Origin: a virus
Length of the DNA: 64,000 bases
Virus record (IMG/VR): IMGVR_UViG_3300025536_000013
Span: 1 to 64,000 of that record
Reading direction: 5' to 3' (one strand)
Shown: positions 44,650-62,355 of the stretch, one piece after another
Numbering within the stretch: the stretch's first letter is position 1
Layout: each line of letters begins with the position of its first letter
Notes under the pieces: generated by a model
What the model saw: only the letters and a program-made list of their open reading frames with translations
The model's database searches: none
What the model was told of the DNA's origin: nothing
Made by a program: the position numbers and the translations under genes

Positions 44650-44955
44650 CTACCTTTCGTCTCCCGAGCCATGGAGCTTGCCACGCTCTTTGCGGGAGGC
44701 AAGCTTGTCAAGGTTAATCTGAGCCACATCGGAGAGGCTCCAGCCACAGTCGCTGCACAGGTTAGCAATGTACCAGAGCACATCACCGAGCTCCTTCTTC
44801 ACGAGCTCTTCCGGCCACTCATCATCTCGGAGCTGTTTCTTCACGAGCTCCAATACTTCGCCTGCCTCGCCGCCGAGTCCGAGGGCTGGATACAGTATAG
44901 GCTGTTTGTAGATCGCAGTCTCTCGTGCTCGGCTCTGATACTCGTCGAATGTCAT
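44650..44955 (-). CDS. MazG-like nucleoside triphosphate pyrophosphohydrolase
   Basis: [14 protein letters not shown]...[16 protein letters not shown]...[12 protein letters not shown]...[21 protein letters not shown] is the classic MazG pattern. Confidence 0.8.
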
Positions 44956-45874: not shown

Positions 45875-46332
45875 GCTGTCCTCCCGGCTTTTGTTAGCCC
45901 ACCGTCATGTAACCAAGAACGGTACTTTACCAGTGCGTGGTCATTCGACTCGAGGTCCGTGCGCCCGAGGCACACGAGACCGACTGCATCAGTAACGTAC
46001 GGGCCTGCACCAGGAACTTTGTCGAGGGTCTTGGCCTGCTCCCACACCCTGGATGCCCGACGAAGGAGCGAGGCCCGTCGATGCTGCAGACCGCACGGCC
46101 TGCAGCAAGCGACGAGGTCGTCGTACTCGGCACTCTGCAGCGCCTGGCGCGACGGCCACATCGACAACATGGCGCGCAGGCTAGTCTCAGCCTGGGCCCG
46201 CGTGGCTCGGCTCAGCAGCACAGAGGCTGCGAACACGCGCCAGGCGCACCCGAGACCAGCTTGCAGTATGATCCCGTCCCAGACTGGCGGAGCCTGAGAC
46301 TCCGCCAGCTGGGACATGAGGACGTGTTTCAT
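45871..46332 (-). CDS. HhH-GPD superfamily (EndoIII/MutY-like) DNA glycosylase-like protein
   Basis: ATGA couples it at 46332. LDKVPGAGPYVTDAVGLVCLG is a helix-hairpin-helix plus Gly/Pro loop. A downstream SNDH supplies a candidate catalytic Asp. Confidence 0.6.
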   Translation of the reverse strand: MKHVLMSQLAESQAPPVWDGIILQAGLGCAWRVFAASVLLSRATRAQAETSLRAMLSMWPSRQALQSAEYDDLVACCRPCGLQHRRASLLRRASRVWEQAKTLDKVPGAGPYVTDAVGLVCLGRTDLESNDHALVKYRSWLHDGGLTKAGRTA

Positions 46333-46574
46333 ATTACCCTGTAGCCTCCGCCGCAAATTTGCCTGGACTCACGAAGCACCCGGAAGATCCGCGGCTCGCG
46401 AGTCACTGGCTTCGGTTCAGTCGATGGACGCGGCTTCTTGACAGTCACCCGCTTCTTGGCCGCGCACCCTTCACACAGTCTCTTCGTGCTCAGCCTCTCG
46501 ACTCCACAACTGGTGCACAGTCCCCGCTTGAGGAGACGAGCCTGCCGGAGCTTCGCAGTCTTACTGGTCGCCAT
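46329..46574 (-). CDS. small basic zinc-ribbon protein
   Basis: The start is ATG 46574. CTSCG...CEGC is present. The sequence is K/R-rich. Confidence 0.5.
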   Translation of the reverse strand: MATSKTAKLRQARLLKRGLCTSCGVERLSTKRLCEGCAAKKRVTVKKPRPSTEPKPVTREPRIFRVLRESRQICGGGYRVI

Positions 46575-50003: not shown

Positions 50004-51065
50004 TCATCTTGACCCCTTCTTTCGATAGAATCGAGTCACAACAACAGAGTTATACTTGTTGATATGTTCTCCGCCAACCCTCTTGAACCCACGGGGGACT
50101 CGATCTTCCCATCCGCCGTGGAACTCGACGCCGAGTGACCGAACGCCAGACCAATCGCCGTCCCAAAAACCTGGCAAGCTCTCTGAACCCTCGACGTCGA
50201 CCTTGACCACGGTCGGCTTGAAGCACGCAAGCAGCCCCGCAAGGTCCACCTTCTGAACGCGGACCCGTGACCCCGGGCGCTCTTGCGCCGAGCGCTTGTA
50301 GGTGAGCCGAGGGTCGGAGTCGACGTAGATGGCGTCGGAGCCGACGGCGGCTTGTATCAGTGTGCCATTGGGGTTGTTCATCCGATACAGTCGTGCATTC
50401 TCGGCATCGGGTTCGACGCCTATGCTGCGAGCCGGACACCACTGGGCAAAGTATCCGGCGTGGGCGCCGAGGTCAAGGACCACGTCGTCCGAGCGGATGT
50501 CGAGATGACACCACTCCGGCTGCTCGGCCCTGATGTTCAAGTCCACGGTGCCCGGTCGATACCAGCTACCTTGGCTCCAAGCGTACTTGAGCCGACTCAA
50601 GACCGCGGCCTCAGCCTCGTCAACTGATGCGACTTGCACGTGGTCAAAGTCGCGTATCACCTGTCGATAGCGCTCGGCAACTCTCAGCAGGGCCTCGTCG
50701 TCGAATTCCTCCGCACCTCGGGCTCGGCGACGTCGAAGCAGTTCTTCGTCTCCGGGGTCGAGGAAGAGGACTAGCAGGTCTTTGTCCCAGAACCCGCGTT
50801 GCTCGCAGCTCGGCTCGCGGTCGAACACCGAGTCGTACACAGCTGATGTCACTGGCCCGAATCGATCGCAGACATAGAGCTTGTCGGGATCATAGAGACA
50901 CTTCCATAGCTCGAAGCACATGTTCCCAGCCACTGCCTGCTGGTGGAAGTCTGCACCACGCGGGCTACGGTACTTCACGTGCGCAGCCCACGGCAGACGC
51001 TCGCAGAGCTCTCTCCACAGAGTCGTCTTTCCGGAGCAATCACATCCTTCGCACGCTACGATCAT
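50004..51065 (-). CDS. thymidylate-kinase-like (d)NMP kinase fused to an FkbM-family methyltransferase
   Basis: The N-terminus MIVACEGCDCSGKTT fits the ExxDxxGK(S/T)T P-loop of dTMP kinases. The C-terminus VVLDLGAHAGYF...VEPDAENARLY...VKVDVEGSE fits the FkbM pattern. ATGA couples it to the upstream gene. Confidence 0.7.
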   Translation of the reverse strand: MIVACEGCDCSGKTTLWRELCERLPWAAHVKYRSPRGADFHQQAVAGNMCFELWKCLYDPDKLYVCDRFGPVTSAVYDSVFDREPSCEQRGFWDKDLLVLFLDPGDEELLRRRRARGAEEFDDEALLRVAERYRQVIRDFDHVQVASVDEAEAAVLSRLKYAWSQGSWYRPGTVDLNIRAEQPEWCHLDIRSDDVVLDLGAHAGYFAQWCPARSIGVEPDAENARLYRMNNPNGTLIQAAVGSDAIYVDSDPRLTYKRSAQERPGSRVRVQKVDLAGLLACFKPTVVKVDVEGSESLPGFWDGDWSGVRSLGVEFHGGWEDRVPRGFKRVGGEHINKYNSVVVTRFYRKKGSR

Positions 51066-51997
51066 AGCAGCTCCTTCAGCGCAGCAAGGCCTTTGGAGTA
51101 AGACTCAGCACGCACGGTCTCTAGGGTCCGAGCCAAGGGCTCAAGCGCCTGGACCAACCGACCGCGCCGATAGAACCCGGCGCCGAGGTCCTTGTAGCAA
51201 GGTTCGTCGCAACAAATGGCCGCAGCTCCGCTGGCAATGGCCTCTCGCACTCCTGCACCGCCGGCCATGTCGTCCTTCATCGAACAGACGACGTAGCGCA
51301 CGTCGCGCAGAAGGGCGAAGTAGGACTCGCGCGTCGGGCAGCTGAGTATTTCCACATGTGGACTGGGCTCATGCTTCTGGAGATACCCTGACGGATCAGT
51401 CAACACGAATCGTGCCCTGCCTCTGAGGGCCTCCGCGGCAGCAACGAACTCCCGATGGCCAGAGTAGTCGCTAGCCGAACAGCGGTGAGAGAATAGAAAG
51501 TCGACCGGGCGCCACAGCACCTCCTCGTCGTTCCAGTTGAACGAACACACGTGCGGCTGCACGCCAAACAGTCTCTGCACGACGTCACCAACGGTCTTGT
51601 TCATGACCGCCACGGCATCAGCAGCCTCGAGGCTATCTCGCTGCCGATCGAGCATCCAGGTGTTGATGCCGAGAGGAAGGAGATGGTTGACTTGCACGAC
51701 GCGTCGAACACTCCGCTTCAGGACTGCGGAGTCGAGCTCGCGGTGGCTGATCAGTGCGTCAATGCCAGCGAGATCGAGTCGCGGGAGCTCCAGTCGCTGT
51801 GTGCGGTTGTCCGGCGGAATGTCGATGCGCCTCAACTCGACGCCGGGAGGATCGTAGCTAGCCCCGTTCGGCCAGAAAAGGACTGCCCCGAGCTTGCGCG
51901 CCTGGTACGAGGCCATGCGGCTCACACAACAGACGTCGGTGAGCTGTACGCCGGTGTTCTTGTCTTGGACGGAGAAGAAGGGGAGGACGGCGATCAT
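51062..51997 (-). CDS. GT-B-fold (GT1/GT4-like) glycosyltransferase candidate
   Basis: AGGAG lies upstream. The C-terminal ...VVCSMKDDMAGGAGVREAIASGAAAICCDEP resembles the E..G....EA.A.G.P motif of GT-B enzymes. Support is weaker than for the other calls. Confidence 0.45.
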   Translation of the reverse strand: MIAVLPFFSVQDKNTGVQLTDVCCVSRMASYQARKLGAVLFWPNGASYDPPGVELRRIDIPPDNRTQRLELPRLDLAGIDALISHRELDSAVLKRSVRRVVQVNHLLPLGINTWMLDRQRDSLEAADAVAVMNKTVGDVVQRLFGVQPHVCSFNWNDEEVLWRPVDFLFSHRCSASDYSGHREFVAAAEALRGRARFVLTDPSGYLQKHEPSPHVEILSCPTRESYFALLRDVRYVVCSMKDDMAGGAGVREAIASGAAAICCDEPCYKDLGAGFYRRGRLVQALEPLARTLETVRAESYSKGLAALKELL

Positions 51998-52092
51998 TCG
52001 TTGTTTCTCCTGGGTTTTTATAAAATCTTGATTCTCGAATCTGATGATCCTCTCATCTCATCACGGCCGGAGTGATTATAAAAATCCTCAGA

Positions 52093-52533
52093 TTACTTTG
52101 TATGAATTGGGGATAGACCGAAGAGGGGAGATCGATCCCCAGAGAGGTTTTTACAAAGTTCAAAGCGTCCGAGACTGAAGAGCAAGAGACCTCGGCCCTT
52201 TTTGAGGAACCCGAGTAGACTGAGCATGTCCGCGGCTCCATACTCTCGGCCACTTTTTGCCAGACCAAGGTCCACCAGCCTATGGTGTCTCAGCTGAGTG
52301 ATAGACCCGAACTCAGCTGCGTGACACTTACGCAAAACGCCTGTAGCAAATCCAGAGTCATATCGGAACAATGCCTTTGGTCGTCCGGACTCTCGACACG
52401 AGACCAAGACATCATGTCTCACCGCAAATCCAAGTCCCTCTAGGGCGTCTACAGCTCCGTATTGATATGGAGCCGAAGTCTTTCTGAGCTCGAACCGAGA
52501 CGCGAGTTCTTTTACTGTCAGCAGTTCAACCAC
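52093..52533 (-). CDS. hypothetical protein (lower GC)
   Basis: AGGAGG lies 7 nt upstream of GTG 52533, which overlaps the HNH stop. The ORF is 146 aa. Confidence 0.45.
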   Translation of the reverse strand: MVELLTVKELASRFELRKTSAPYQYGAVDALEGLGFAVRHDVLVSCRESGRPKALFRYDSGFATGVLRKCHAAEFGSITQLRHHRLVDLGLAKSGREYGAADMLSLLGFLKKGRGLLLFSLGRFELCKNLSGDRSPLFGLSPIHTK

Positions 52534-52969
52534 CTAACAGCCTCCTCAGCTTCCTCAACCTGACCTCGTCCACCCCTGCAGCCTCGCTCACCCTGAGCAG
52601 CTGTCGAAGCCACCGTTTGCTCTTGTTCTTAAGCCCGAGCCTCTCTGCGTCTGCTAGCCGAGCTGCGCCTTTCATAGCCCTACCCTTGAGCACCTTGTCC
52701 CGGTGGTTGTCTGCCCGCGAGCCGAGAAACACGTGCTCAGGCTTCACGCACTCCGGATTGTCGCACCGATGACAGAGACACAGCACAAAATCCACCGCTG
52801 GATACGCCGATAACATCAGCCCGCGGAGCTCGGCCCTGAGTTCTGGCATCTCCAGACACTCGTCCTCTGCTCCCAGTCCCAACGCTTCGCCGAAACACGA
52901 CACCGTGGGCGTCGACTCCTGGGGCACGAGCACACGATGGGCAACAGCGGCCATCACTCTATCCTTCAA
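52526..52969 (-). CDS. HNH homing-endonuclease-like protein
   Basis: CLCHRCDNPECVKPEHVFLGSRADNHRD matches the HNH_3 signature. It abuts the 3' end of the polymerase gene. Confidence 0.8.
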   Translation of the reverse strand: MKDRVMAAVAHRVLVPQESTPTVSCFGEALGLGAEDECLEMPELRAELRGLMLSAYPAVDFVLCLCHRCDNPECVKPEHVFLGSRADNHRDKVLKGRAMKGAARLADAERLGLKNKSKRWLRQLLRVSEAAGVDEVRLRKLRRLLGG

Positions 52970-55900
52970 GGACCTTCCCCCTCAGCGCCCGGGCGCACTC
53001 GAATTGCTTCACAGGCTTCGTCCAATACGGAGCCCTAACCCCCTCGACCAGCAACGGAAAATCCGGTGCCCAATCGGGTGGCTCGGACATTATCGACAGC
53101 ATCTTATGCAACTGGTCCGACTCGACAACGATTTCGTCGTGGACATGCATGCACGGGTTGAGGCCTTCAGCCTCGAATCGCACAAGAGCATGGGCCATGA
53201 GGTCTCGGCAGATTGCCTGCACCGCGTTCTCGCAGTTATGCACGATGACTGGACCGTATTCAGTCATCACCGTGTATCGGTGTCGCGGTCCACAGTTGAG
53301 AAGATCATATACAGGAGAGATTCCCATATAAGACCACAAGCTGTTCTGGAGTGGCGCCTTTTTTGAGGTAAGAGACGAGTGTATTTGGGCTCGCTTTCCA
53401 TGGACCGCCTTTCCGAAGGAACATCGCCAGTGGTATCGGTTTCCCCCCAAAGACAACGTATTTTGTACGACGTGTGTTGTTTGTGCTTTCGTTCGGAGTG
53501 ACCATACGGACATTTCCCGGTTCATAGTGTCCGTCGTTGTCTGTCCTATCGAGCCATAAGGACAAATCGTCGAATCCTGGTATTGTTGTGATGTACATAG
53601 CAAACGCTTCAAAACTCTCTGTCCATTCCTGATAAACTTTGATGCCCCTTGCACCGTAACGATCCCAAGCTTGATCAGTCTCATTATTGCAGCGTCGTAT
53701 GATGTCTGCCCATGCACGATGCCACCGCACATAGAGCTTATGAGTCGCGAAGCCTGTTTGTTCGAGTAAATTGACAATGCGTTTTTGTTCTCTGTATCGC
53801 TTTGCACAGCCAGTTGTACAGTATCTTCGTCCTTTTCCTTTTCGCAAACCGCCAAGATTGACAGCAACAGCTTCTCCACAGATGCACGTGCACCCGACAA
53901 CGTAATTATTGTATCCGAGTCTAATCGGCTCTGTCTGCACGACCAAGGCATGGAACTTGCTGCCGATCTTAGGCACCGCAACGTAGCATCTGCGTCCAAG
54001 CGAATCACTGACTTCCATCTCATACCATCGTGAATCAAGTGGTCTTCTGTGACTGCTACGCCCAGCCATGTGCCTATCTCCCTTTCTCCGTTGTACACAT
54101 ATCCATCTGTCTTGACCCAAGACCCACCATCCCACACCCTATCTTGCGCAGTGACGCTAACTATCGATTTGATGCCGTGGTCAGTCAGTATCTTTGTCTC
54201 CGGACCAAAACAGAGACTCCCGCCATAAGTTCCGCGTCGTTGTCCGTGCGGATGGAGAAACGTCACTGTGGGCACAGTCATCACGCGGCCCATTGCCACA
54301 GCCCACTTCGGCGTCAGGTCCTCGATTCGCACGTCGCGGTAGTAGAGGCGCCGCCCGCTCGGCAAGCGTATGACCATATTGTCGGCTTCGCGGTAAAAAT
54401 CGCACCGACCGACGTGGGTCGACATGCCGTGCCGGACGCACGCCATCGCCGCGTCACCAAACTGCTTCCATAGTCGAGGTATATTGGGGAATGTATCTCG
54501 ATACTTCTTGACAAGTGCTCTAGACTCTTCCTCGCCCATAGTGAAATCTCGGCGGAGCTTATCGCCGGAGTGGCTGGACATGAAGCGGTCGAAAGCTCTC
54601 TTGAAGCCAGCCCAACTGAGGCCGTAGCCGCAGCCCAACACAATCTGCTTCGACACGACTCGCTCCCACGAGTCCTTGTTCGGCTTGAAGCCATAGAGGT
54701 CCGTCGCGAACTCGATGTACACGTCCTTGTCTTGATCAGCGAAGGTGTTGAGCAGCCGATCCTCGCGCGCGAGCCACGCGACTCCGCGAGCCTCGACTGC
54801 AGAGTAGTCGGCGATGCAAAGATCACCGCGGACACATCCACGAGTCAGGCAGTTGATCACCGCGCCCACGGTGCAGCTCTGAGCAGAGTTAGTCTCTCGC
54901 ATCTTGGCAGTCGTCTTGTCTGCCGCCTCTCGAAGTTTGTCGTAGTCGAGAACGCTGGACAGCAGTCCAGGCACGTCGACGTGAACTAACGGAATGGGAA
55001 AGTTCTGCGGCTGCAGTTGTCGGCCGGCCCATCGGCCAGTGTGGGCTCGGTGGTACACGTGCTGATCGCGCACTCGACCGTCTTCCTCCAAGGCAAGCAT
55101 CATGGCGAGCTTATTGCCGCCGGTCCGCACTAGCTCGTTGCGGAGCACCAAGATGTCCTGGAGTCCCGCAAAGGCATCGGGGCACTCATCAGGCTCGCCG
55201 AAGTAGAACTCCTCGGGCTTCTGGAATAGCTCGAACATAGCCGGCCGACTGATAGACGTGAGCTTAAATCCACGGGCCTCGAGCCAGCCAGTCATCTGCT
55301 TGTGCGAGCGCGGGTTGACGCTGCTGGTGAGCTCGTCGAACTCCGCGCCGGCGACGGACATGTTGTAGTCGTACAGATTGCGCAAGTGCTGCACGAGCGG
55401 CTTGCAGATGGGGATGCCACGGTCGTTGATCTTGACGTCCACGTCGAGCACGTCTGGCTCGTCGACATCCTTGACTTGGCTGTAGACTTTCTCCAACAAG
55501 CGCACATCTCGACGGCAGTACTCGACGAACTGATTCCACACCTGGTCGTTGCCCACGAAGTACTGCGGCACACCGTTGCGGATCTTGACCTTGCTAATCA
55601 TGTCGATGAGCATCGAGCCAGTTTTGTCCTTGCCGCGACCCTCCAAGAGCTTGCCGAGCTCGTCGAGCCGACCAGGGAGACCTTTGGCACGAGATGCTCG
55701 GACTGTGTCGAAAAACGTGGCCGGTTCGCCTACGAACTTCTCCCATGCGAGCGAGTCGAAGTCTGCATTGTGCGCACAGAGCGTTCGCTCTTTTGCTGCA
55801 CTGATGTAGGCCTGTGGTACAGGCTCTCCTTGTCGCCACACGTGGTCGACTCCGTCGACGCTCAGCACACAGCAGGCAAGCCGAGTCGACTCGTCCGCAA

Positions 55901-55994
55901 AGTACCGTCTAGCCCCGTGTTCAAGGTTGTTGGTACTCATCGTCTCGAAGTCGACGAATGCAACTTTGTCGCCTGGTTTCCAGTTAGTCTTCAT
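52959..55994 (-). CDS. family A DNA polymerase with 3'-5' exonuclease domain, interrupted by an intein
   Basis: AAGGAG lies upstream. The exonuclease motifs are FVDFET and AHNADFD. The polymerase motifs are DLCIADYSAVEAR, SKQIVLGCGYGLS and VHDEIVVE. The extein junction is TYGGSL|intein|CENAVQAICRDL. Confidence 0.9.
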   Translation of the reverse strand: MKTNWKPGDKVAFVDFETMSTNNLEHGARRYFADESTRLACCVLSVDGVDHVWRQGEPVPQAYISAAKERTLCAHNADFDSLAWEKFVGEPATFFDTVRASRAKGLPGRLDELGKLLEGRGKDKTGSMLIDMISKVKIRNGVPQYFVGNDQVWNQFVEYCRRDVRLLEKVYSQVKDVDEPDVLDVDVKINDRGIPICKPLVQHLRNLYDYNMSVAGAEFDELTSSVNPRSHKQMTGWLEARGFKLTSISRPAMFELFQKPEEFYFGEPDECPDAFAGLQDILVLRNELVRTGGNKLAMMLALEEDGRVRDQHVYHRAHTGRWAGRQLQPQNFPIPLVHVDVPGLLSSVLDYDKLREAADKTTAKMRETNSAQSCTVGAVINCLTRGCVRGDLCIADYSAVEARGVAWLAREDRLLNTFADQDKDVYIEFATDLYGFKPNKDSWERVVSKQIVLGCGYGLSWAGFKRAFDRFMSSHSGDKLRRDFTMGEEESRALVKKYRDTFPNIPRLWKQFGDAAMACVRHGMSTHVGRCDFYREADNMVIRLPSGRRLYYRDVRIEDLTPKWAVAMGRVMTVPTVTFLHPHGQRRGTYGGSLCFGPETKILTDHGIKSIVSVTAQDRVWDGGSWVKTDGYVYNGEREIGTWLGVAVTEDHLIHDGMRWKSVIRLDADATLRCLRSAASSMPWSCRQSRLDSDTIITLSGARASVEKLLLSILAVCEKEKDEDTVQLAVQSDTENKNALSIYSNKQASRLISSMCGGIVHGQTSYDAAIMRLIKLGIVTVQGASKFIRNGQRVLKRLLCTSQQYQDSTICPYGSIGQTTTDTMNREMSVWSLRTKAQTTHVVQNTLSLGGNRYHWRCSFGKAVHGKRAQIHSSLTSKKAPLQNSLWSYMGISPVYDLLNCGPRHRYTVMTEYGPVIVHNCENAVQAICRDLMAHALVRFEAEGLNPCMHVHDEIVVESDQLHKMLSIMSEPPDWAPDFPLLVEGVRAPYWTKPVKQFECARALRGKVLEG
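53235..54212 (-). mobile_element. intein (326 aa) in the DNA polymerase
   Basis: The N-terminus is CFGPETKILTDHG (block A). GVAVTEDHLI is the TxxH block B. The C-terminus is VYDLL...GPVIVHN followed by Cys+1. It is in frame with the exteins. Confidence 0.8.
53305..54069 (-). CDS. homing-endonuclease-like ORF nested inside the intein in a different reading frame
   Basis: AGGGAG lies 8 nt upstream of ATG 54069. WHRAWADIIRRCNNETDQAWDRYGARGIKVYQEWTESFEAFAMYI...LDRTDNDGHYEPGNVRMVTPNESTNNTR matches a widespread phage family usually annotated as HNH/homing endonuclease. Confidence 0.6.
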   Translation of the reverse strand: MAGRSSHRRPLDSRWYEMEVSDSLGRRCYVAVPKIGSKFHALVVQTEPIRLGYNNYVVGCTCICGEAVAVNLGGLRKGKGRRYCTTGCAKRYREQKRIVNLLEQTGFATHKLYVRWHRAWADIIRRCNNETDQAWDRYGARGIKVYQEWTESFEAFAMYITTIPGFDDLSLWLDRTDNDGHYEPGNVRMVTPNESTNNTRRTKYVVFGGKPIPLAMFLRKGGPWKASPNTLVSYLKKGATPEQLVVLYGNLSCI

Positions 55995-56010
55995 GCCTCA
56001 GTCTCCTTCA

Positions 56011-56058
56011 GTCCGGCTGCGGGGTTCGAACCCGCAATGCTGCCGACCAGCGCCGGGA
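56011..56058 (-). ncRNA. tRNA 3'-half-like minihelix in the polymerase leader
   Basis: The - strand reads TCCCGGC-(GCTG-GTCGG-CAGC)-ATT-GCGGG-TTCGAAC-CCCGC-AGCCGGA-C. That gives a canonical T-arm plus an acceptor-like stem but no D or anticodon arm. It ends 20 nt before the polymerase ATG. Confidence 0.35.
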
Positions 56059-56065
56059 CCCAGAC

Positions 56066-56257
56066 TCACGCGGCCTCAACTTCCTCCGCCTCAGCCTCTG
56101 CATAAGCAGCCAAGGCTTCGACGTCGGACTTCAGGGCAAGGACCTTGTCCCAGGCATCGTGGGACTTAGCCTCCTCTGGAGCCTCGTCGATGACTGCCTG
56201 CAAGAGTCCGTTCGCCTCGTCGCACACGGACCGCAGACGATCAAGCCATTCACTCAT
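56066..56257 (-). CDS. small acidic protein
   Basis: GGGAGG lies upstream of ATG 56257. The ORF is 63 aa. Confidence 0.5.
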   Translation of the reverse strand: MSEWLDRLRSVCDEANGLLQAVIDEAPEEAKSHDAWDKVLALKSDVEALAAYAEAEAEEVEAA

Positions 56258-56448
56258 GACGCTACCTCCCTGCAGGAATCCGCCTGCTGCGGTGCGGCAA
56301 GAGCCGCATAGAAGTCGTGAAGGACGGTGAACGCGGCTTTGGGGACTGGGCGCCCAGCCTCGAAGGAATAGACATACTGTCGATTGACGCCAAGGCTCTT
56401 AGCAACGATCTCGGGGGTCATGCAAGCGCGTCGTCGAGACGAGATCAC
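56254..56448 (-). CDS. XRE-type HTH protein
   Basis: ISSRRRACMTPEIVAKSLGVNRQYVYSFEAGRPVP fits HTH_3. The frame stays open and HTH-like further upstream, but there is no ATG/GTG/TTG there, so the start is uncertain. Confidence 0.5.
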   Translation of the reverse strand: MISSRRRACMTPEIVAKSLGVNRQYVYSFEAGRPVPKAAFTVLHDFYAALAAPQQADSCREVAS

Positions 56449-56590
56449 ACGACCGAGTTCTCGCGGCTCCAGGCACGTGAGTCGTGTCCGGAGTTCAGAC
56501 TTCGCGATGGCGACGAGTTCTTCCAGCTGTTCCGTTGTGAGATCCCTGATGCTGTGCTACATAGACGCTGACCAGTACATCACCACTACC

Positions 56591-56848
56591 CTAAAGGGTA
56601 GGGGAAGGGGGAAACAGAGCGCCAGCCATAGATTCAAACATGCGACCAGTGCATTCGATCATGGCCACTTCGCCGTTGGGCAGCTGGGCCATGAGCGCCA
56701 CGCTCGTTCTGCCGCCTTCGGTGCCGCACTGTAGCACCGCGAAATGGCTCAGTATTGCCTCTACAATCTTCTTGTCAGCCAAGTCGGGGAACAGTGGCCC
56801 ATAAGCCTGTGCGTTCACGTCCTGAATCTTCACTATCACCGGATTCAT
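56591..56848 (-). CDS. hypothetical protein
   Basis: AGGAGG lies upstream of ATG 56848. The ORF is 85 aa. Confidence 0.5.
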   Translation of the reverse strand: MNPVIVKIQDVNAQAYGPLFPDLADKKIVEAILSHFAVLQCGTEGGRTSVALMAQLPNGEVAMIECTGRMFESMAGALFPPSPTL

Positions 56849-56858
56849 GGCGGTCCTC

Positions 56859-57131
56859 CTAGAATGGAAGCGGTTCCCCTGGCGGCTGACCTAGCTTCTT
56901 GTTGCATTTGCCACAGGCTAACACGCATATGCCTTGCGCCCAATCGCCGGCATAGAGGCGGATACGTCGATGACGGCTAGTCTTTGTTGGATTCCAGTTT
57001 ACCCTTTTGGTGTGGTGGAATTCAAGTAGCCAATGGCGTGTCTCGCGGCAATAGCGGCAGCGCCCGCCCATGAGAGCGATGAGCAGGGTGCGCTGTGTGG
57101 CATAACGACGGTTGTCAGCACGCCGGCCCAT
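56859..57131 (-). CDS. HNH endonuclease domain protein
   Basis: The start is ATG 57131. GGRCRYCRETRHWLLEFHHTKRVNWNP...CGKCN is an HNH-type CxxC..HH..CxxC pattern. Confidence 0.6.
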   Translation of the reverse strand: MGRRADNRRYATQRTLLIALMGGRCRYCRETRHWLLEFHHTKRVNWNPTKTSRHRRIRLYAGDWAQGICVLACGKCNKKLGQPPGEPLPF

Positions 57132-57265
57132 AGGTAGACAGTATCCTCTCGGCTGGGACTCATGGTCCGCTCTTGTCCGATACGATAGGCCGCCCATATC
57201 GCATCGCGTAGGCGTTTGGGCAGCTTCATCCAATGCGAGTAGCAGCCCCATAGAGCTGGCGGCAC
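56999..57265 (-). CDS. ORF whose N-terminal ~45 aa look genuine; possible frameshifted N-terminus of the HNH gene
   Basis: GTG 57265 gives MPPALWGCYSHWMKLPKRLRDAIWAAYRIGQE, the HW..LP..LR..IW..Y pattern seen in phage proteins. After about 57135 the frame becomes A/S-rich junk while the -1 frame carries the HNH domain. Confidence 0.35.
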   Translation of the reverse strand: MPPALWGCYSHWMKLPKRLRDAIWAAYRIGQERTMSPSREDTVYLWAGVLTTVVMPHSAPCSSLSWAGAAAIAARHAIGYLNSTTPKG

Positions 57266-57468
57266 TAGCTTTGTATGTCCTCAAGGAATTCGTCGCCGCG
57301 TATCATGCCTTTGCAAGTGCATTGCATAGCCGTGGACTGAACGTGGAAGGACAGCGGCACCGTACCTGATATTATCCACCGTCTGTCTCCCTAAAGCCAT
57401 TGCGGCTCTGTCTCTGAGAATAGCTGCTGTTTCTTCTTTCCACACTTAAAACCCCCCTGGCGTCGTTG

Positions 57469-57732
57469 CTAGGTGTTGAGCGCTTCGTCGATCCTTCTGG
57501 CGAACTCTATCGCCTGTTCTACTGACTTCGGCGTGCCTAGAAGCTTGTACTTCTCGCACATCTGCCCTCTACGGGCAACGTTCGGCTCCAGACAGATCGC
57601 TCCGAACAAGGAGCACGTGTGACCCTCTGGCAAGTGCCCGAGGCCGACGAACATCTGCTTGTCAATCACCACTTGACTGACCCCGTCGAATATGCCGCCT
57701 AGGTCCGTTATCGGCACGCTCGACAGCAGCAT
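57469..57732 (-). CDS. hypothetical protein
   Basis: AAGGGGG lies upstream of ATG 57732. The ORF is 87 aa. Confidence 0.5.
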   Translation of the reverse strand: MLLSSVPITDLGGIFDGVSQVVIDKQMFVGLGHLPEGHTCSLFGAICLEPNVARRGQMCEKYKLLGTPKSVEQAIEFARRIDEALNT

Positions 57733-57856
57733 CTATCACCCCCTTCAGTTTGAGGACAATGGGCGCCAAGAAGTCTCCGCTGCGAGAGTAGGAGACCCTG
57801 GCTTTTGTGCCACGCACGCTGCGGGCTACTGTGGCTCCTGAGCTGATAATCTGCAT
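57662..57856 (-). CDS. hypothetical small ORF (3' end overlaps the next gene)
   Basis: GAGAGGG lies upstream of ATG 57856. Only the first ~40 codons are non-overlapping. Confidence 0.3.
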   Translation of the reverse strand: MQIISSGATVARSVRGTKARVSYSRSGDFLAPIVLKLKGVIDAAVERADNGPRRHIRRGQSSGD

Positions 57857-58047
57857 AGCACCCTCTCATCGTGTCGGTCGAATGCCTCGTTGACTGCCCG
57901 AAGGCACTGCCACTCCAGAGACTCGCGCGCCGCCTTCTCGTCCTCGCCCTCGTCGAGCTCGGCTCGAAGAGTGCAGTGCACGGTGCAGGACTGAAAGTTC
58001 ACACTGCGAGTCTCTCCGTACGTGATCTCGACGTGCGTCGTTTTCAT
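57826..58047 (-). CDS. hypothetical small protein
   Basis: GGAG lies upstream of ATG 58047. The ORF is 73 aa. Confidence 0.5.
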   Translation of the reverse strand: MKTTHVEITYGETRSVNFQSCTVHCTLRAELDEGEDEKAARESLEWQCLRAVNEAFDRHDERVLCRLSAQEPQ

Positions 58048-58121
58048 TTGCGTCTCCAAGGATCCACGAATCAATACATCATTATATCTTCAAGGATTGA
58101 AAATGTAAATCATAATTTCTC

Positions 58122-58610
58122 TTACCCTTGGGCGGACACACGTCGGCTCCGCAACTTGACGTTAGCCCAAGTCTCCAGCACAGCGGGCTCGAAGTCTACG
58201 CCGACGCACGTGGCAAGCACGCGGAGCTCCGCCGTGAGCTCAGTCACGTTGGCTCCCACGCCGACACGCGAGGCCAGCACGACGGAGGCTAGGTTGACAA
58301 TCTTGATGAGCATGTGTCGCACGTTCTTGGACTCAGAGCCGTATCCCGGCACCCACAGCACATCTGCTGCGTTACACACGCTACAGCTGGCGATGGCTAC
58401 GTCGCCAATCGCGTCAACGAGCTCCGGTGTCCAGTCTTTGTGCGCGTAGCGAGGCTCCGGTCCCCACTCGTTCTGTTGCATGGACTTGAGCACCGGCTTC
58501 ACGAGCTCGCCGACCTCCTCGACGAGGCACAGCGCTGGGTACCAAGAATCCTGCTGTGGGTACATCTCGTCCACCCAGGCCTTGTGCTCAGCTTGAAGTC
58601 TGTCGAGCAT
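58122..58610 (-). CDS. MazG-like / all-alpha NTP pyrophosphatase domain protein
   Basis: AGGAGG lies upstream. ...LCLVEEVGELVK...ELVDAIGDVAIASCSV... has the EExGE and D..GD pattern of MazG-type enzymes. Confidence 0.55.
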   Translation of the reverse strand: MLDRLQAEHKAWVDEMYPQQDSWYPALCLVEEVGELVKPVLKSMQQNEWGPEPRYAHKDWTPELVDAIGDVAIASCSVCNAADVLWVPGYGSESKNVRHMLIKIVNLASVVLASRVGVGANVTELTAELRVLATCVGVDFEPAVLETWANVKLRSRRVSAQG

Positions 58611-58920
58611 GGTCTGCTTCCTCCTGGTACTGCCTCAAGATCCTGGGAGCCTTCCTCCAGACTCCGTTTATGCGGCGCAAATTTGCCGTGGGATTGAACC
58701 CGACGAACAGGTGCAGCAGCCTGCTCAGCTGCTCCTGCAGTTCTTCTACTGTTGGCTCGTGACGACGTCTCTTTCGCCTGAGCTCTGCAGGAACCTTGTA
58801 TCGGTTCCTACACGGCTTGCAGCGCCGATGCTTGCTAGTCAGCTTTCCTCCGCAGCAGATGCACAATCCAGCCGCGCGAAAGCGGTCTTGCCGAGCCCTC
58901 GCTTGCTCGCTGCTAGCCAC
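58588..58920 (-). CDS. basic zinc-ribbon protein
   Basis: AAGGAG lies upstream of the GTG. CICCGGKLTSKHRRCKPC is present. Confidence 0.5.
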   Translation of the reverse strand: MASSEQARARQDRFRAAGLCICCGGKLTSKHRRCKPCRNRYKVPAELRRKRRRHEPTVEELQEQLSRLLHLFVGFNPTANLRRINGVWRKAPRILRQYQEEADHARQTSS

Positions 58921-59623
58921 AGTGGAGCTCCTTCCATGCCTGGTCAGAAGACAGCGGTTCGACGAACATAGAACCAGCTTCTGTCGAGTTGTCAGTCTCT
59001 CGGGCTAAGTCTTTGACGTTCACGTGCAGAGAACCGACTGTCCAGTACAACTTGCCGAGGCTGAGCCCGACGGCGTCGGCGACGAACTTCTGCAAGTTGG
59101 TCAAGAGGATCAGGTCATAGGGCAGCACAGACCAGGCGTTGAGCGAGCGACTATAGACGTGTAGATCAAGTCCGTCAGTATTGAGAAAGTGCAAGTGGCT
59201 GATGCACGCAGGGATGTTGGCGTTGCGCGGACGGCTGTTGTCGGTGACTGTAGCCGACGCCGCGCGAGTGTCCTTACACTGTCGTAGGCACTGTATCGCA
59301 CGCTTGATGCCAGGCCAGGCTATGGGACCATAGGCCCCGACCATGAGCCCCTCTGTCAAGTACTTGTTGGCATGTTCGTTGTAAGCTTTGAGCACGAGTG
59401 CGCGCTCAGTATCCGTGTAGAAGAACAGCACATTGGCTCGAGCCCACCGAAGGTCGACCGGTCGAGCAGTCACGACGTTACGCATCGGGTCGTCGAGCAC
59501 GAGCGTGACGTGACACGCCTCGACGGTGCCCGAGACGTTGCACCCGTCCTCAGCCCTCCGCTGTCGGGTCGGAAGCGACAGAGCCTTGAGGAAGAGCTGA
59601 TTCGCGCACGCTGTCTGGTACAT
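58913..59623 (-). CDS. thymidylate-synthase (ThyA) family enzyme; dCMP-modifying type suspected
   Basis: AGGAG lies upstream. NIPACISHLHF...VYSRSLNAWSVLPYDLILL...LYWTVGSLHV aligns with E. coli ThyA APCHAFFQF...YQRSCDVFLGLPFNIAS...FVWTGGDTHL. Asp occupies the position of Asn177. Confidence 0.7.
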   Translation of the reverse strand: MYQTACANQLFLKALSLPTRQRRAEDGCNVSGTVEACHVTLVLDDPMRNVVTARPVDLRWARANVLFFYTDTERALVLKAYNEHANKYLTEGLMVGAYGPIAWPGIKRAIQCLRQCKDTRAASATVTDNSRPRNANIPACISHLHFLNTDGLDLHVYSRSLNAWSVLPYDLILLTNLQKFVADAVGLSLGKLYWTVGSLHVNVKDLARETDNSTEAGSMFVEPLSSDQAWKELHCG

Positions 59624-59936
59624 AGGCTCTCCTGATTAGCTGGCCCATCCAGTCGGTGACGCTGAGAACGTCGAAACCGTCCTCCGTAGGGCCGTTGGGA
59701 GCAAAGTTGATTCCGCACAAGGCTTCGGCGACTTCTTCCGGAGGCACTCCACACTGAAGCGAGATCGACACCACACGGGACAGGGAGTCGAGTATGCCGC
59801 GCTCGTAAGAGCCGAACACTCCACCGGTCACGAAGACTTCGCCGAGCTGGCCATCCTCTCGCTCGCCGAAGCTAGCGTAGTAAGCATGGCCGCCGATCCT
59901 CGTCTTCTGGGTCCAGGTGTAACGTCGCTCAGGCAT
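59550..59936 (-). CDS. TSCPD-domain-like protein
   Basis: HAYYASFGEREDGQLGEVFVTGG...LDSLSRVVSISLQCGVPPEEVAEAL resembles the TSCPD domain found at the C-terminus of class II RNRs. The 3' end overlaps the ThyA-like start. Confidence 0.45.
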   Translation of the reverse strand: MPERRYTWTQKTRIGGHAYYASFGEREDGQLGEVFVTGGVFGSYERGILDSLSRVVSISLQCGVPPEEVAEALCGINFAPNGPTEDGFDVLSVTDWMGQLIRRAYVPDSVRESALPQGSVASDPTAEG

Positions 59937-62355
59937 CGGTTTTCGTGAGCTCGTCATTTACGAGGTACCCCTGCCGTTGGCCGTCGTCGGATCGAAACCG
60001 TATAGCCACCTTCGATGCACCGTGTGACTTGCACTCGAATTTCACTCGGACAGAGGCACCGACAAGCTTAGTCCAGTCCTCGGACGAGGCCTTGCGAGAC
60101 CCCTTCCAGTCCTCGTCTGCGACATTCTCCCAGGCTTCCAGCAAGGGCGTCATCTGCCCACGAGTTATGACCTTCCACCCGCGACCAGACCAGCGCGTGG
60201 CATCGCTGCCAGATGCATCTGGTGCCTCGCAGGCTGCCTTGAACAAGGAGAGCAAGAGGCTCTCGTTCTCATGTGCCTCGTCAGATTCGGACATCGGGAA
60301 GTAGCCGAGGCGCCCGGCGGATTCTTCAAACGTAGTCGGGGTCACAAAGAACTCGTCGATGACTTCGGAGAGTATCGCGTCGGCTGCGTCCGCATACTCC
60401 CGACCAGCCAGGCGAAACCGCTCGAGCCTATCTACAGTTGTCCGGAGACTGTGCCGCCAGTCGACTTTGCCTGAGAGGTTCACGTGCACCAAACGTCGGG
60501 CGAGCTGAGCGTCTTGTTTGACCTCGATAGGAACACGAGTGTCAGTGAAGGCCACCACTGGCAAGTCGCCGAGCTTCACTGGACCGATGTAGGCTTTCCA
60601 GCTAGTAGAATCCGGGGTAAGGTTCAATACGAAGTCAGAGGCTTGCACTGCAGACTGCTTCGCTCTTTCAGCCTCCTTGAAAAACTCGTTGAAGCACAGA
60701 AACATGCCAGTGTCTTTGCTGTCTCGAATAGCTTGTCTAACACGTTCAATGTTCGCCGTCCACTGGACTGCGGTTGCCCCATCGCCAGCTATAGCCGCGG
60801 AGACCATCACCGTGCCGGTCTTCGCGCTGCTAGTCGGTCCGGAGACGAAGATCATGGGAGGCAGACCGACGCCTCCCTCTACGAAGCCCTTCGCAACGAG
60901 CATGAGCTTGACGAAACGAGGCTCGATGCCAGGACAGACTTGTTCGAGAACAGCCCAACCATCGACTCGCTTCTCCGGCGGAATGTATTTTGGCCGGAAC
61001 TGTGCAACGTTGTCGCGTGCCAAGGCTGGGGTCTGAACCACTACTCTCACTCGGTTGACGTCGCACTGGCGCACAAAGTGGCTGTACATCCGGCAGCCGA
61101 AGACCGGTGTCAGGTGCGGATAACCGTACTGTGCTAGGTCGAACGTCTGTTCTAAGGTCGCCACCTTGGCCGCGTTACCGCCAGCTGAGGGCAACGCAGC
61201 AATTATAGCCCTGACGTCTTTGACGTACGAGTCTCCATTGCTGTTGGTCCACCGGCCTTCCATACGCAGCACGTTATGGCCGCCCTGGAGCACAGAGTCC
61301 CTAGTCTCGTCGTCGATCGCCGAGTGGTGGAGTTTCAACGCGGCGCCGTACGCCACGCGAGCAACGTCGTTGGACAAGCCGAACTTGTCCTGGAGCACGT
61401 GCTTGGCGTGCTCCCAGTGGCAAAAGCCATCGAGGCAGTTATACAGGAGCTCGGAAGCAGATCCGCCGACAAACGCGGAGAAGGGGAAGAACCCGGGAGT
61501 GCGCCCGCCGTGCAAGAGTCCGTGGGCCTCGCACACGAAGCACTTGACTCCACGCTCGAAGACGTGGACCGGGGTGCCGGCCGCAGTGGAGCTCGGCGAG
61601 ACGGGGCACTTGTCGTGAGAGTAGCGCCCGCCGATCACTAGGCCCTCTTGCCGAAGCCACTCGACAACTGCACCGTCGTCGACAGAGTACTGCTTGAAGC
61701 GGCGGCGTAATGCTTTCATGTCAGAGGTCTGCTCGGAGACCACGATCTCCGTGCGAGGCAGCCGAGTGTCGGTCTTGAGCTCGAGGGAGTCATATCGCAC
61801 GCTGTCGCTGAGGCACAAGTATGCCACCGCGGCACACTCTTCCGCGGAGAATCTCTCCAGCGCACCGTAGACGAGCCGCAATCCTCCGCTCTTCGTCACC
61901 CAAGACATGGCGGGCCGAGGGTCGAACCAGACTAACAACTCACGAAGCTTCTTGTCGTCCCACTCCGTACTGTCGAGGTCGACTGCGGCGAGCATGTCCC
62001 GGCGAGACCAACGTGCGACTGGATCTTCCAAGGAACCGAAGCCATTTGTGCAAGCCTCTTTGAGCAGCCTCAAGGGGTCGAGGCTGCGGAGCGTCTCAAC
62101 GTCAGTTCCAGTCAGGTCGCGTACGGTGAGTTCAAACTCCTGCTCGCCTCCCCACTCAACACTCGGCTGGTCCGAGTGCTCTAGTGCGTCGACTGCGGCC
62201 ATCAATTCGTCGCGAGAGACTCCGAGCGCTTTGGCTGCTTTCTTGAACTGCGTCTCATCAGTGAACTTGGATTCCACTCGACCGACTAGCTTGTCTCTCT
62301 TCCTAGCTTCAATGAGAACTTTGCCCCGCGGTGCTCTTGTCAGCGTCAGTTTCAC
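59929..62355 (-). CDS. primase-helicase (P-loop, D5/VirE/P4-like)
   Basis: AGGAG lies upstream of the GTG. The ORF is 808 aa. It has a central Cys cluster CPV...CFVCEAHG and a Walker A FVSGPTSSAKTGT. Confidence 0.7.
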   Translation of the reverse strand: MKLTLTRAPRGKVLIEARKRDKLVGRVESKFTDETQFKKAAKALGVSRDELMAAVDALEHSDQPSVEWGGEQEFELTVRDLTGTDVETLRSLDPLRLLKEACTNGFGSLEDPVARWSRRDMLAAVDLDSTEWDDKKLRELLVWFDPRPAMSWVTKSGGLRLVYGALERFSAEECAAVAYLCLSDSVRYDSLELKTDTRLPRTEIVVSEQTSDMKALRRRFKQYSVDDGAVVEWLRQEGLVIGGRYSHDKCPVSPSSTAAGTPVHVFERGVKCFVCEAHGLLHGGRTPGFFPFSAFVGGSASELLYNCLDGFCHWEHAKHVLQDKFGLSNDVARVAYGAALKLHHSAIDDETRDSVLQGGHNVLRMEGRWTNSNGDSYVKDVRAIIAALPSAGGNAAKVATLEQTFDLAQYGYPHLTPVFGCRMYSHFVRQCDVNRVRVVVQTPALARDNVAQFRPKYIPPEKRVDGWAVLEQVCPGIEPRFVKLMLVAKGFVEGGVGLPPMIFVSGPTSSAKTGTVMVSAAIAGDGATAVQWTANIERVRQAIRDSKDTGMFLCFNEFFKEAERAKQSAVQASDFVLNLTPDSTSWKAYIGPVKLGDLPVVAFTDTRVPIEVKQDAQLARRLVHVNLSGKVDWRHSLRTTVDRLERFRLAGREYADAADAILSEVIDEFFVTPTTFEESAGRLGYFPMSESDEAHENESLLLSLFKAACEAPDASGSDATRWSGRGWKVITRGQMTPLLEAWENVADEDWKGSRKASSEDWTKLVGASVRVKFECKSHGASKVAIRFRSDDGQRQGYLVNDELTKTDA

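Follow-up and report, generated by a model that had tools for sequence, protein, structure and literature searches.

A phage replication block predicted to make glycosylated 5-hydroxycytosine DNA through a divergent ThyA-fold enzyme and a module that includes a kinase::FkbM fusion

Introduction

Record IMGVR_UViG_3300025536_000013 of the IMG/VR virus collection, of which positions 1 to 64,000 were analysed (64,000 nucleotides, referred to here as the window), carries on its minus strand, from ~44 kb to 64 kb, a replication block in which a relative of thymidylate synthase (ThyA), a nucleotide kinase fused to an FkbM-type methyltransferase, a glycosyltransferase-like protein, two MazG-like pyrophosphatases and a phage DNA polymerase are encoded. 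The locus raises the question of whether the phage places a modified base in its DNA and, if so, which one. An earlier note on this DNA had listed these five relevant genes as a candidate T4-like cytosine hypermodification pathway, and all five were found in the open reading frame (ORF) list where it had placed them. The view that they form one pathway with a pre-replicative and a post-replicative phase, composed of a ThyA-fold enzyme, a pyrophosphatase, a kinase and a GT-B glycosyltransferase, is upheld, and a 5-substituted, probably glycosylated base is supported as far as sequence comparison reaches. What is not supported is the hydroxymethyl chemistry implied by the T4 analogy, as the ThyA-fold enzyme has Asn169 and Val173, like verified 5-hydroxy-dCMP synthases, and lacks Glu58 (PMC13326640). 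We consider it moderately probable that the block replaces cytosine in the phage DNA with glycosylated 5-hydroxycytosine, possibly methylated further. By signature, the closest known system would be the glycosylated 5-hydroxycytosine pathway of phages RB69, DLP3, HY126 and RL38JI, not the T4 pathway. The first descriptions of glycosylated 5-hydroxycytosine, from T4-like phages and from Rhizobium phage RL38JI, date from 2025-26.

The genes on which the argument turns are as follows.

58913..59623, minus strand: ThyA-fold enzyme of 236 amino acids (aa), predicted flavin-dependent 5-hydroxy-dCMP synthase, from PF00303 and the active-site signature
58122..58610, minus strand: MazG-type all-alpha NTP pyrophosphatase, predicted dCTPase, from family profile and position
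52959..55994, minus strand: family A DNA polymerase (PHROG 17, E 4.7e-74), interrupted by an intein, which would incorporate the modified dNTP
51062..51997, minus strand: GT-B-like protein of 311 aa, predicted DNA 5-hydroxycytosine O-glycosyltransferase, from convergent sub-threshold evidence
50004..51065, minus strand: fusion ORF of 353 aa, kinase N-terminal and FkbM-like C-terminal
50601..51065, minus strand: residues 1-155 of the fusion, Tmk/YorR-like nucleotide kinase domain, predicted 5-hydroxy-dCMP kinase
50004..50600, minus strand: residues 156-353 of the fusion, FkbM-type class I S-adenosylmethionine (SAM) methyltransferase domain, predicted tailoring O-methyltransferase
44650..44955, minus strand: second, canonical MazG pyrophosphatase (Pfam PF03819, E 2.9e-10; PHROG 229, E 8.6e-38)

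Results

The ThyA-fold enzyme

The 58913-59623 protein matches Pfam PF00303 (Thymidylat_synt) with an E value of 7e-9, and four PHROG thymidylate-synthase families are matched as well. Its closest solved relative is the CMP 5-hydroxymethylase MilA (5b6d; E 6.5e-6 alone and 5e-28 with the family profile), and entries 9iqu and 9iqc of phage HY126 are also among its structure matches in the PDB. Close proteins number nine in a search of 5.8 billion proteins; an IMG/VR scan for the clade returned one contig, a scan of JGI metagenomes returned the same contig, and tblastn against the phage collection found nothing above 28% identity.

Active-site residues were compared, in E. coli numbering, in a MAFFT alignment of E. 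coli ThyA, RB69 gp48 and four other Straboviridae enzymes (from GenBank), hydroxymethyl-type controls and the window clade. HMMER alignments to PDB thymidylate synthases yield the same equivalences. The controls were PS2 gp43, which is encoded beside alpha/beta-glucosyltransferase genes, the enzymes of contigs L012 and L023, and proteins P0010 to P0012, including a Streptomyces MilA-like protein. The catalytic Cys146 ('IPAC') and the phosphate-binding Arg166 and Ser167 ('SRS') are kept in the window protein and its clade, as are the equivalents of Tyr94 and His207. The Asp that the earlier note had recognised at the base-discriminating position is confirmed, 'LPYD' being aligned with 'LPFN' by both HMMER and MAFFT, and this N177D substitution is invariant in the nine-member clade. 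At position 169 'RSLN' is aligned with 'RSCD', Asn being present in eight of the nine clade members and in L014 and Ser in P0008, and G173V is found in the window protein, P0002-P0009 and L014. The three groups compare as follows.

Straboviridae 5-hydroxycytosine enzymes (n=5, including RB69 gp48): 143 Glu; 169 Asn; 173 Val; 177 Asp; 209 Phe (Tyr in Acj9); by our own reading of the alignment, a Glu lies one residue before aligned column 58
Hydroxymethyl-type controls (n=6): 58 Glu; 143 Asp (given elsewhere in the analysis as Asp or Glu); 169 Asp; 173 Gly; 177 Asp; 209 Tyr
Window protein, P0002-P0009 and L014: 58 Asn; 143 Ile, Leu, Arg, Gln or Val; 169 Asn (Ser in P0008); 173 Val; 177 Asp; 209 non-aromatic

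RB69 gp48 and DLP3 gp80 are ThyA-fold enzymes that turn dCMP into 5-hydroxy-dCMP (Lee et al., NAR 2026, PMC13326640), the oxygen being derived from O2 and flavin being loosely bound to the enzymes. In the same work Asn at the E. coli Asp169 position is diagnostic for 5-hydroxy-dCMP synthases, and every D169N homolog tested made 5-hydroxy-dC in vivo, nine diverse enzymes of metaviromic or distant-phage origin among them (PMC13326640). The published D169N signature, the co-varying G173V and the loss of two further residues of the folate machinery thus make a 5-hydroxy-dCMP synthase likely, and the window enzyme is most likely a member of a new, divergent clade of such synthases that lacks Glu58.

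A conserved module in seven lineages

Relatives were taken from contigs encoding the closest ThyA-like proteins and from the IMG/VR scan, together giving six further phage lineages besides the window, and window proteins were searched by BLAST against the ORFs of these contigs for synteny. Genes for ThyA-like, MazG-like, glycosyltransferase-like and Tmk-like kinase proteins lie side by side in seven lineages when the window is included, the other carriers being L003, L004/L005, L006, L008, L010 and L014. The usual order is ThyA, MazG, glycosyltransferase and kinase, followed by an HNH gene:

L003: ThyA, MazG, glycosyltransferase, kinase, HNH
L014: PolA, methyltransferase, ThyA, MazG, glycosyltransferase, kinase, HNH
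L010: PolA, radical SAM enzyme, glycosyltransferase, ThyA, MazG, GT8, kinase, HNH
L004 and L006: the same genes, with kinase and MazG paralogs duplicated
L008: ThyA, MazG, a 111-aa protein, glycosyltransferase, at which point the contig ends

Protein identity between the window and the modules of its relatives is 24-47%, values so low that the synteny does not reflect recent common descent. A glycosyltransferase-like gene lies within the cluster of ThyA, MazG and kinase genes in all seven lineages. Given the synteny of four enzymes in seven lineages, the co-occurrence of the four enzyme genes exceeds chance.

In six relatives the counterpart of the gene at 58122-58610 immediately follows the ThyA-like gene. 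The protein alone matched no Pfam or PHROG model; its family profile (A4) matches MazZ (7ody, E 0.0022) together with YpjD, 5ie9, 2q73 and 2q5z, five of the six PDB matches being of MazG type. The motifs EEvGEL...DAiGD are present and PF03819 is matched weakly by two of the eight family members, so that the MazG assignment made in the earlier note is predicted from evidence that is sub-threshold but convergent. The second MazG gene of that note, at 44650-44955, is canonical, and homologs of it are encoded within or beside the L006 and L008 modules; it can be placed in the pathway only tentatively.

The HNH gene that closes the module in relatives is also present in the window:

52526..52969, minus strand: HNH endonuclease (PHROG 1872, E 8.7e-11), with a homolog after the kinase gene in five relatives

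We regard it as a travelling companion of the module and not as a pathway enzyme.

Several relatives carry additional genes among those of the module. Radical SAM enzymes are encoded in L004 (4957-5901) and L010 (7356-8234), a GT8 protein in L010 (10462-11502), a histidine phosphatase in L004 (8939-9454) and a Methyltransf_24 enzyme, labelled 'DNA methyltransferase' by PHROGs, in L014 (7357-7929). This variety of inserted tailoring-type genes suggests a diversifying hypermodification cluster, with several different final modifications in the phage group. The MazG-like proteins of two relatives (L003, 10710-11534; L008, 10734-11477) have a C-terminal extension of ~110 aa, that of L003 being homologous (E 1e-17; 'CLxGSTRF' motif) to a stand-alone 187-aa protein at 1178-1741 of L012, in a hydroxymethyl-type cluster. 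In protein P0186 a relative of the kinase domain is joined to an all-alpha NTP pyrophosphatase domain (dUTPase_2), a fusion that links these two module functions independently.

The product of the ThyA-fold enzyme

A different C5 substituent, either the 5-methyl-dCMP known from XP12 or an undescribed group, might be introduced by the enzyme and elaborated by its neighbours. Position 143 of the window protein is the hydrophobic Ile, which a published rule ties to methyl and not to hydroxymethyl products; E58N with loss of Tyr209 is unique to the clade and found in no characterised enzyme; and the modules of relatives contain the radical SAM (L004, L010) and Methyltransf_24 (L014) enzymes listed above. 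However, the variability of position 143 (I/L/R/Q/V) indicates no selection for hydrophobicity, the joint loss of Glu58 and Asp169 is contrary to folate-dependent one-carbon transfer, and a methyl group would offer no acceptor to the glycosyltransferase that is always present, and we regard such a product as unlikely.

The T4-like route, in which a folate-dependent dCMP hydroxymethylase would supply 5-hydroxymethylcytosine to the glycosyltransferase, draws on N177D, which is common to T4 gp42 and MilA, on MilA, a CMP hydroxymethylase, as the best solved-structure match by sequence, and on an enzyme set (pyrophosphatase, ThyA-fold, kinase and GT-B) that equals that of T4. The match to MilA does not separate the two chemistries, as the verified 5-hydroxy-dCMP synthases also have MilA as their top structural match (Table 1, PMC13326640). 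The folate-contacting Asp169 and Glu58 have both been replaced by Asn throughout the clade and position 143 is non-acidic, while the hydroxymethylase-type relatives (P0010-12, PS2 gp43, L012 and L023) keep E58, D/E143, D169, G173 and Y209. The N169, N58 and I143 of the window protein do not fit the gp42/MilA type, and we consider the T4-like route very unlikely. An ordinary thymidylate synthase was rejected on D177 in place of Asn177 and on wide failure to reach any NCBIfam equivalog cut-off (TIGR03283, 34 bits against 174.6; TIGR03284, 22 against 108), and a pseudo-enzyme on the 23 invariant positions, the catalytic Cys among them, in an alignment of 11 homologs.

The glycosyltransferase-like protein

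The 51062-51997 gene is coupled to the fusion gene as the earlier note had described: its 3' end reads CTATGA, the internal ATG starts the fusion ORF, and stop and start overlap as ATGA, read directly from the sequence as CTATGATCG. The protein alone has no family match, and a word-indexed homolog search found only the protein itself, with one relative added when the family profile was used. In a PDB profile search with the family, four of the six best matches are to GT-B enzymes, each aligning over one shared C-terminal motif, where 'GGagvrEAiasG' aligns with the GT4 motif (G-G-x-x-x-x-E-A). An AlphaFold model, which the note had proposed as a check, shows beta/alpha alternation in two halves, and the first 49 Foldseek matches in the PDB are all GT-B proteins (best E 3.8e-7, TM score 0.3-0.4). 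These include MshA, tll1591, 7qsg and the HY126 glycosyltransferase 9iqz, the templates reported for phage DNA glycosyltransferases. Motifs common to this family and the first glycosyltransferases (GT1) of Straboviridae are P-[FI]-x-S...TG, RxSxxxY, TDP and YxxLL; an hmmsearch of the family against RB69 GT1 gave only 5.3 bits, yet this is above all 2000 shuffles. The protein is predicted to be a GT-B enzyme, an assignment whose support is weak but convergent.

The kinase::FkbM fusion

Both halves of the fusion read by the earlier note are borne out. Residues 1-149 match PHROG 761 thymidylate kinase (E 8.6e-19) and contain a P-loop (EGCDCSGKTT), the DRF motif as CDRF and an Arg-rich lid (LLRRRRARG); Pfam PF02223 matches the P-loop only, under the cut-off. 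Among PDB entries the SPbeta protein YorR (2axp) matches best, and YorR (3kb2) is also the top structural match of the DLP3 cluster kinase (Table 1, PMC13326640). When window proteins were compared by BLAST with RB69 gp46, gp47, gp48 and gp56, the results were insignificant, the kinase being the exception. An hhalign comparison of the window kinase family with the RB69 gp45-type kinases of Straboviridae clusters gave a probability of 97.8% and an E value of 8e-13 over the half from the P-loop to DRx.

The FkbM domain scores slightly below the cut-offs of its family models (PF05050, 21.8 bits against 22.7; TIGR01444, 33.3 bits against 37.7, E 5.8e-8), and its stand-alone homologs pass PF05050 at 1e-7 to 1e-11. 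The motifs DLGAHAG, VEP..N and KVDVEGSE are intact. In an alignment of 72 sequences D-x-G of DLGAHxG and the K, E and E of K-x-D-x-E-G-x-E are invariant, and the acidic residue of VEP is nearly so. Modelled alone (AlphaFold, AF2), the domain reaches a predicted local distance difference test (pLDDT) score of 87.2, and its Foldseek matches are class I SAM methyltransferases. A second, canonical FkbM methyltransferase (1683-2375, plus strand; PF05050, E 2.5e-22), whose gene precedes the portal gene in a stretch of unannotated genes, is no close relative of the domain in the fusion.

No second example of the fusion was found among the matches listed. When 1.84 billion representative proteins were searched exhaustively with phmmer, 462 matches were obtained; among the best 150 of these the query alone spans both domains, each of the others being either a kinase by itself (150-190 aa) or a separate protein of 200-230 aa. 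A literature search found no paper linking FkbM to phage hypermodification, and a preprint on viral DNA glycosyltransferases mentions neither O-methylation nor kinases. The kinase::FkbM combination is therefore new, as the earlier note had supposed, in that no other example is found among the best 150 of 462 matches and no published description was found.

The genomic contexts of six FkbM homologs were looked up, of which two (L017 and L024) are on short or uninformative contigs. All four informative contexts are phage DNA- or nucleotide-modification neighbourhoods:

L016: FkbM homolog (42% identity over the domain alignment) whose gene immediately precedes that of a module-type kinase, the two overlapping by 4 nt
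L013: FkbM homolog flanked by a phosphatase and a P-loop nucleotide kinase (PF18751), with ADDT (PF18724) and a Tet_JBP protein adjacent
L012: FkbM homolog with a hydroxymethyl-type ThyA, a C5 DNA methyltransferase and a 619-aa protein that has a second FkbM domain at its C-terminus
L023: FkbM homolog as a C5-methyltransferase::FkbM fusion (P0158), with a hydroxymethyl-type ThyA, dCMP deaminase, PolA and a MazG-like gene

The L016 kinase is 41-43% identical to those of L004 and L006, and the pair is in the opposite order to that in the window fusion. The L013 kinase has no detectable relation to the window kinase. No PDB or Pfam match was found for the N-terminal domain of the 619-aa L012 protein; a homolog of that domain, there fused to FkbM, is a 328-aa protein encoded at 10111-11097 of L023. 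Given the fusion to a kinase and the recurrent base-modification contexts, the FkbM methyltransferase is very likely, to judge from gene arrangement, part of the modification chemistry.

A last alternative is that action on DNA precursors is confined to the nucleotide enzymes, with the glycosyltransferase and the FkbM enzyme modifying a protein, a cell-envelope glycan or a small molecule. GT-B and FkbM enzymes do act mostly on glycans, lipids and natural products, the unrelated FkbM gene at 1683-2375 lies among plus-strand, mostly virion genes, and no sugar-activation genes were found among the window ORFs scanned. Such a division of roles is nevertheless difficult to reconcile with the glycosyltransferase-like gene inside the cluster in all seven lineages and its translational coupling to the kinase in the window, with the glycosyltransferase-kinase-synthase adjacency shared by the characterised 5-hydroxycytosine phages (PMC13326640), and with the modification neighbourhoods of FkbM-domain homologs in all four informative contexts, and we hold it to be highly improbable.

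Discussion

The proposed pathway

In the pathway that we favour, leading to glycosylated 5-hydroxycytosine, the 58122-58610 pyrophosphatase would hydrolyse dCTP to dCMP, as suggested by fold class and position, depleting the canonical nucleotide and feeding the synthase. The conserved Cys of the ThyA-fold enzyme would attack C6 of dCMP, and C5 would be hydroxylated by means of flavin and O2, not methylene-tetrahydrofolate, to give 5-hydroxy-dCMP; this step is proposed because of the D169N/N177D signature, whose chemistry is experimentally shown in other phages. The Tmk-like kinase domain (50601-51065) would form 5-hydroxy-dCDP and host nucleoside diphosphate (NDP) kinase the triphosphate, and the phage family A polymerase would then place 5-hydroxy-dC in the position of dC. 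On the DNA, the 5-hydroxyl would be glycosylated by the GT-B enzyme (51062-51997) with a host NDP-sugar as donor. A Pfam scan of 30 other, larger ORFs of the window revealed neither a dCMP deaminase nor a gp1-type kinase nor any gene for sugar nucleotides, and sugar-nucleotide biosynthesis genes were likewise not found in the replication block, so that the donor would be a common host NDP-sugar, largely as in RL38JI. Lastly, and speculatively, the FkbM domain (50004-50600) might add a methyl group to the sugar or the 5-hydroxyl within the same pathway. The phage would be expected to gain protection from restriction enzymes and CRISPR nucleases, as has been demonstrated for RB69 and DLP3 DNA.

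Several observations weigh against this reading. The clade departs from all verified 5-hydroxy-dCMP synthases: it has Asn in place of Glu at position 58, a position 143 (Ile in the window protein) that is not Glu, and no Tyr or Phe at position 209, and E58N together with the Tyr209 loss has no counterpart among characterised enzymes; identity of the ThyA-like protein to RB69 gp48 is insignificant in BLAST, and the D169N rule is here extrapolated to a new clade. The demonstrated 5-hydroxy-dCMP kinase of RB69 is of the T4 gp1 type and not the Tmk-like kinase. The window cassette is split, the ThyA and MazG genes lying ~6 kb from the glycosyltransferase and kinase genes on the same strand with the polymerase between them. 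Members of the glycosyltransferase-like family match only GT-B families in Pfam, all below threshold (best E 6.6e-4), and the model, built from a two-sequence alignment, is of low confidence (pLDDT 45.6). The hhalign comparison of this family (A1) with the first-glycosyltransferase family of Straboviridae (A9) gave an E value of 0.0033 and a probability of 9.8% over 264 colinear columns, so that homology to the characterised first glycosyltransferase is suggestive only. Finally, the Foldseek matches of the FkbM domain are generic and uninformative on its substrate.

Comparison with known systems

In the Straboviridae arabinosyl-5-hydroxycytosine pathway (RB69 gp45-48 and gp56, DLP3 gp78-80 and the HY126 Afh genes; PDB 9iqu, 9iqc and 9iqz), as in the window, a ThyA-fold enzyme with N177D, D169N and G173V occurs with an all-alpha dCTPase (predicted in the window) and with an adjacent pair consisting of a first GT-B transferase of ~300 aa (likewise predicted in the window) and a Tmk/YorR-like kinase. 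There the base is replaced before replication and glycosylated afterwards on DNA, an order also predicted for the window. A trio of kinase, first glycosyltransferase and synthase is present in three unrelated phages, as RB69 gp45-46:47-48, DLP3 gp78-79-80 and RL38JI gp214-215-216, and in RB69 and DLP3 the dCTPase is encoded elsewhere in the genome (Table 1, PMC13326640). The window synthase and glycosyltransferase show no significant identity to those of Straboviridae, and the synthase lacks Glu58 and has a residue other than Glu at position 143; genes for arabinose-5-P isomerase, kinase/uridylyltransferase, phosphatase and the gp1-type dNMP kinase were not found among the window ORFs scanned; and the polymerase belongs to family A and not B, on a 91-kb contig of ~60-65% GC that is not T4-like. 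Unlike known 5-hydroxycytosine systems, the window has a methyltransferase fused to the kinase, and the contiguous four-gene cassette of its relatives includes the pyrophosphatase.

RL38JI (Pootjesviridae; hexosyl-5-hydroxycytosine) has the trio of kinase, glycosyltransferase and 5-hydroxy-dCMP synthase (gp214-216) that is predicted for the window. Common UDP-sugars of the host are the main source of its hexoses, in agreement with the finding of no sugar-activation genes among the window ORFs scanned. It differs in having three glycosyltransferases and UDP-galactopyranose mutase, in belonging to another phage family and in a cluster without a reported methyltransferase. The T4 glucosyl-hydroxymethylcytosine pathway (gp56, gp42, gp1 and the alpha- and beta-glucosyltransferases) follows the same logic with the same four enzyme classes and Asp at the base-discriminating position, but gp42 depends on folate and retains both Glu60 and the Asp equivalent to D169, the kinase is of the gp1 family, and the product is hydroxymethyl and not hydroxyl. 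With TET/JBP- and 5-hydroxymethyl-dU-based clusters the window shares the FkbM subfamily, found in L013 beside a P-loop kinase (PF18751), ADDT (PF18724) and Tet_JBP; TET/JBP systems differ in hydroxylating 5-methyl groups on DNA after replication, and the window has neither TET/JBP proteins nor amino-acid:DNA transferases.

The methyl group proposed for the final product has a precedent in tRNA, where 5-hydroxyuridine is converted to 5-methoxyuridine by SAM-dependent O-methylation of a 5-hydroxypyrimidine (TrmR/YrrM). These enzymes act on RNA, are of COMT type and not FkbM type, and are non-homologous to the window domain. Candidate targets of the FkbM domain are the sugar, the 5-hydroxyl, which would give 5-methoxycytosine, or another position in DNA. 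We advance only tentatively, and with more doubt than confidence, the proposal that the fusion O-methylates within the pathway, that the virion DNA holds a base undescribed in any organism, either 5-methoxycytosine or an O-methyl-glycosyl-5-hydroxycytosine, and that the FkbM subfamily is a recurrent tailoring enzyme of phage pyrimidine hypermodification. By analogy with the tRNA reaction, 5-hydroxy-dCMP may be methylated before phosphorylation in the 5-methoxycytosine variant. The subfamily occurs with a putative 5-hydroxy-type ThyA (window and L016), with a hydroxymethyl-type ThyA and a C5-methyltransferase (L012 and L023) and with TET/JBP (L013).

What is new is a minimal four-gene module outside the families with characterised 5-hydroxycytosine systems (Straboviridae and Pootjesviridae). 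If the assignment is correct, 5-hydroxycytosine chemistry extends to an unrelated, high-GC phage lineage with a family A polymerase, and its four-gene cassette could be transferable to other systems. A synthase clade without Glu58 would help to explain how a folate enzyme became a flavin hydroxylase, and an FkbM subfamily pairing with kinases and base-modifying enzymes would represent a candidate for an undescribed tailoring step, perhaps one that yields an undescribed natural DNA base. This would also matter for how phages evade restriction and CRISPR, and for sequencing artefacts with metagenomic phage DNA.

The phage and other genes of the window

The window DNA is also found on the public metagenomic contigs ERZ27300258:k141_68381 (90.9 kb) and SRR6213120_48828, and the GC content of the phage is ~60-65%. 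Megablast of the 12-kb replication block against 50,697 phage records gave no match, no tRNAs were found in the window, and a scan of 185,579 GTDB species genomes with the ThyA clade and the portal protein as queries found nothing, giving no host assignment and no prophage relatives.

The polymerase intein comprises 326 aa (residues 595-920; window 53235-54212), with boundaries CFGPETKIL...VIVHN|C, and BLAST alignments of the polymerase to intein-less relatives are split. Its GC content is 0.487, compared with 0.587 in the exteins. Within the intein, in another reading frame, is a minus-strand HNH endonuclease gene of 276 aa (53305-54135; phrog_374, E 1.4e-27; phrog_3377, E 8.8e-26), over which the polymerase frame stays open and the third frame has 15 stops; it looks like a homing endonuclease overprinted on the intein. 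The L006 polymerase (990 aa) probably also has an intein.

Upstream of the ThyA-like gene lies a stand-alone TSCPD-domain ORF (59550-59957, minus strand; PF12637, E 6.9e-14) that public gene annotation of the same contig omits. It shares 74 nt with the ThyA-like gene and 29 nt with the gene for an 808-aa protein. The latter (59929-62355, minus strand) is 47% identical to its L008 counterpart and has no Pfam or PHROG match; its gene occupies the position that a Prim-Pol/D5-type primase-helicase gene has in L006 and L014, and it is therefore probably a divergent primase-helicase. Two HK97-type Phage_capsid ORFs are present on the plus strand in one structural block (16991-18127, E 5.7e-23; 26311-27714, E 6.5e-29). 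A 161-aa ORF (45871-46356, minus strand) has a sub-threshold match (E 1.1e-4) to HhH-GPD, a base-excision glycosylase domain, and a DNA glycosylase-like protein would be notable if the cytosines of the phage are modified as predicted.

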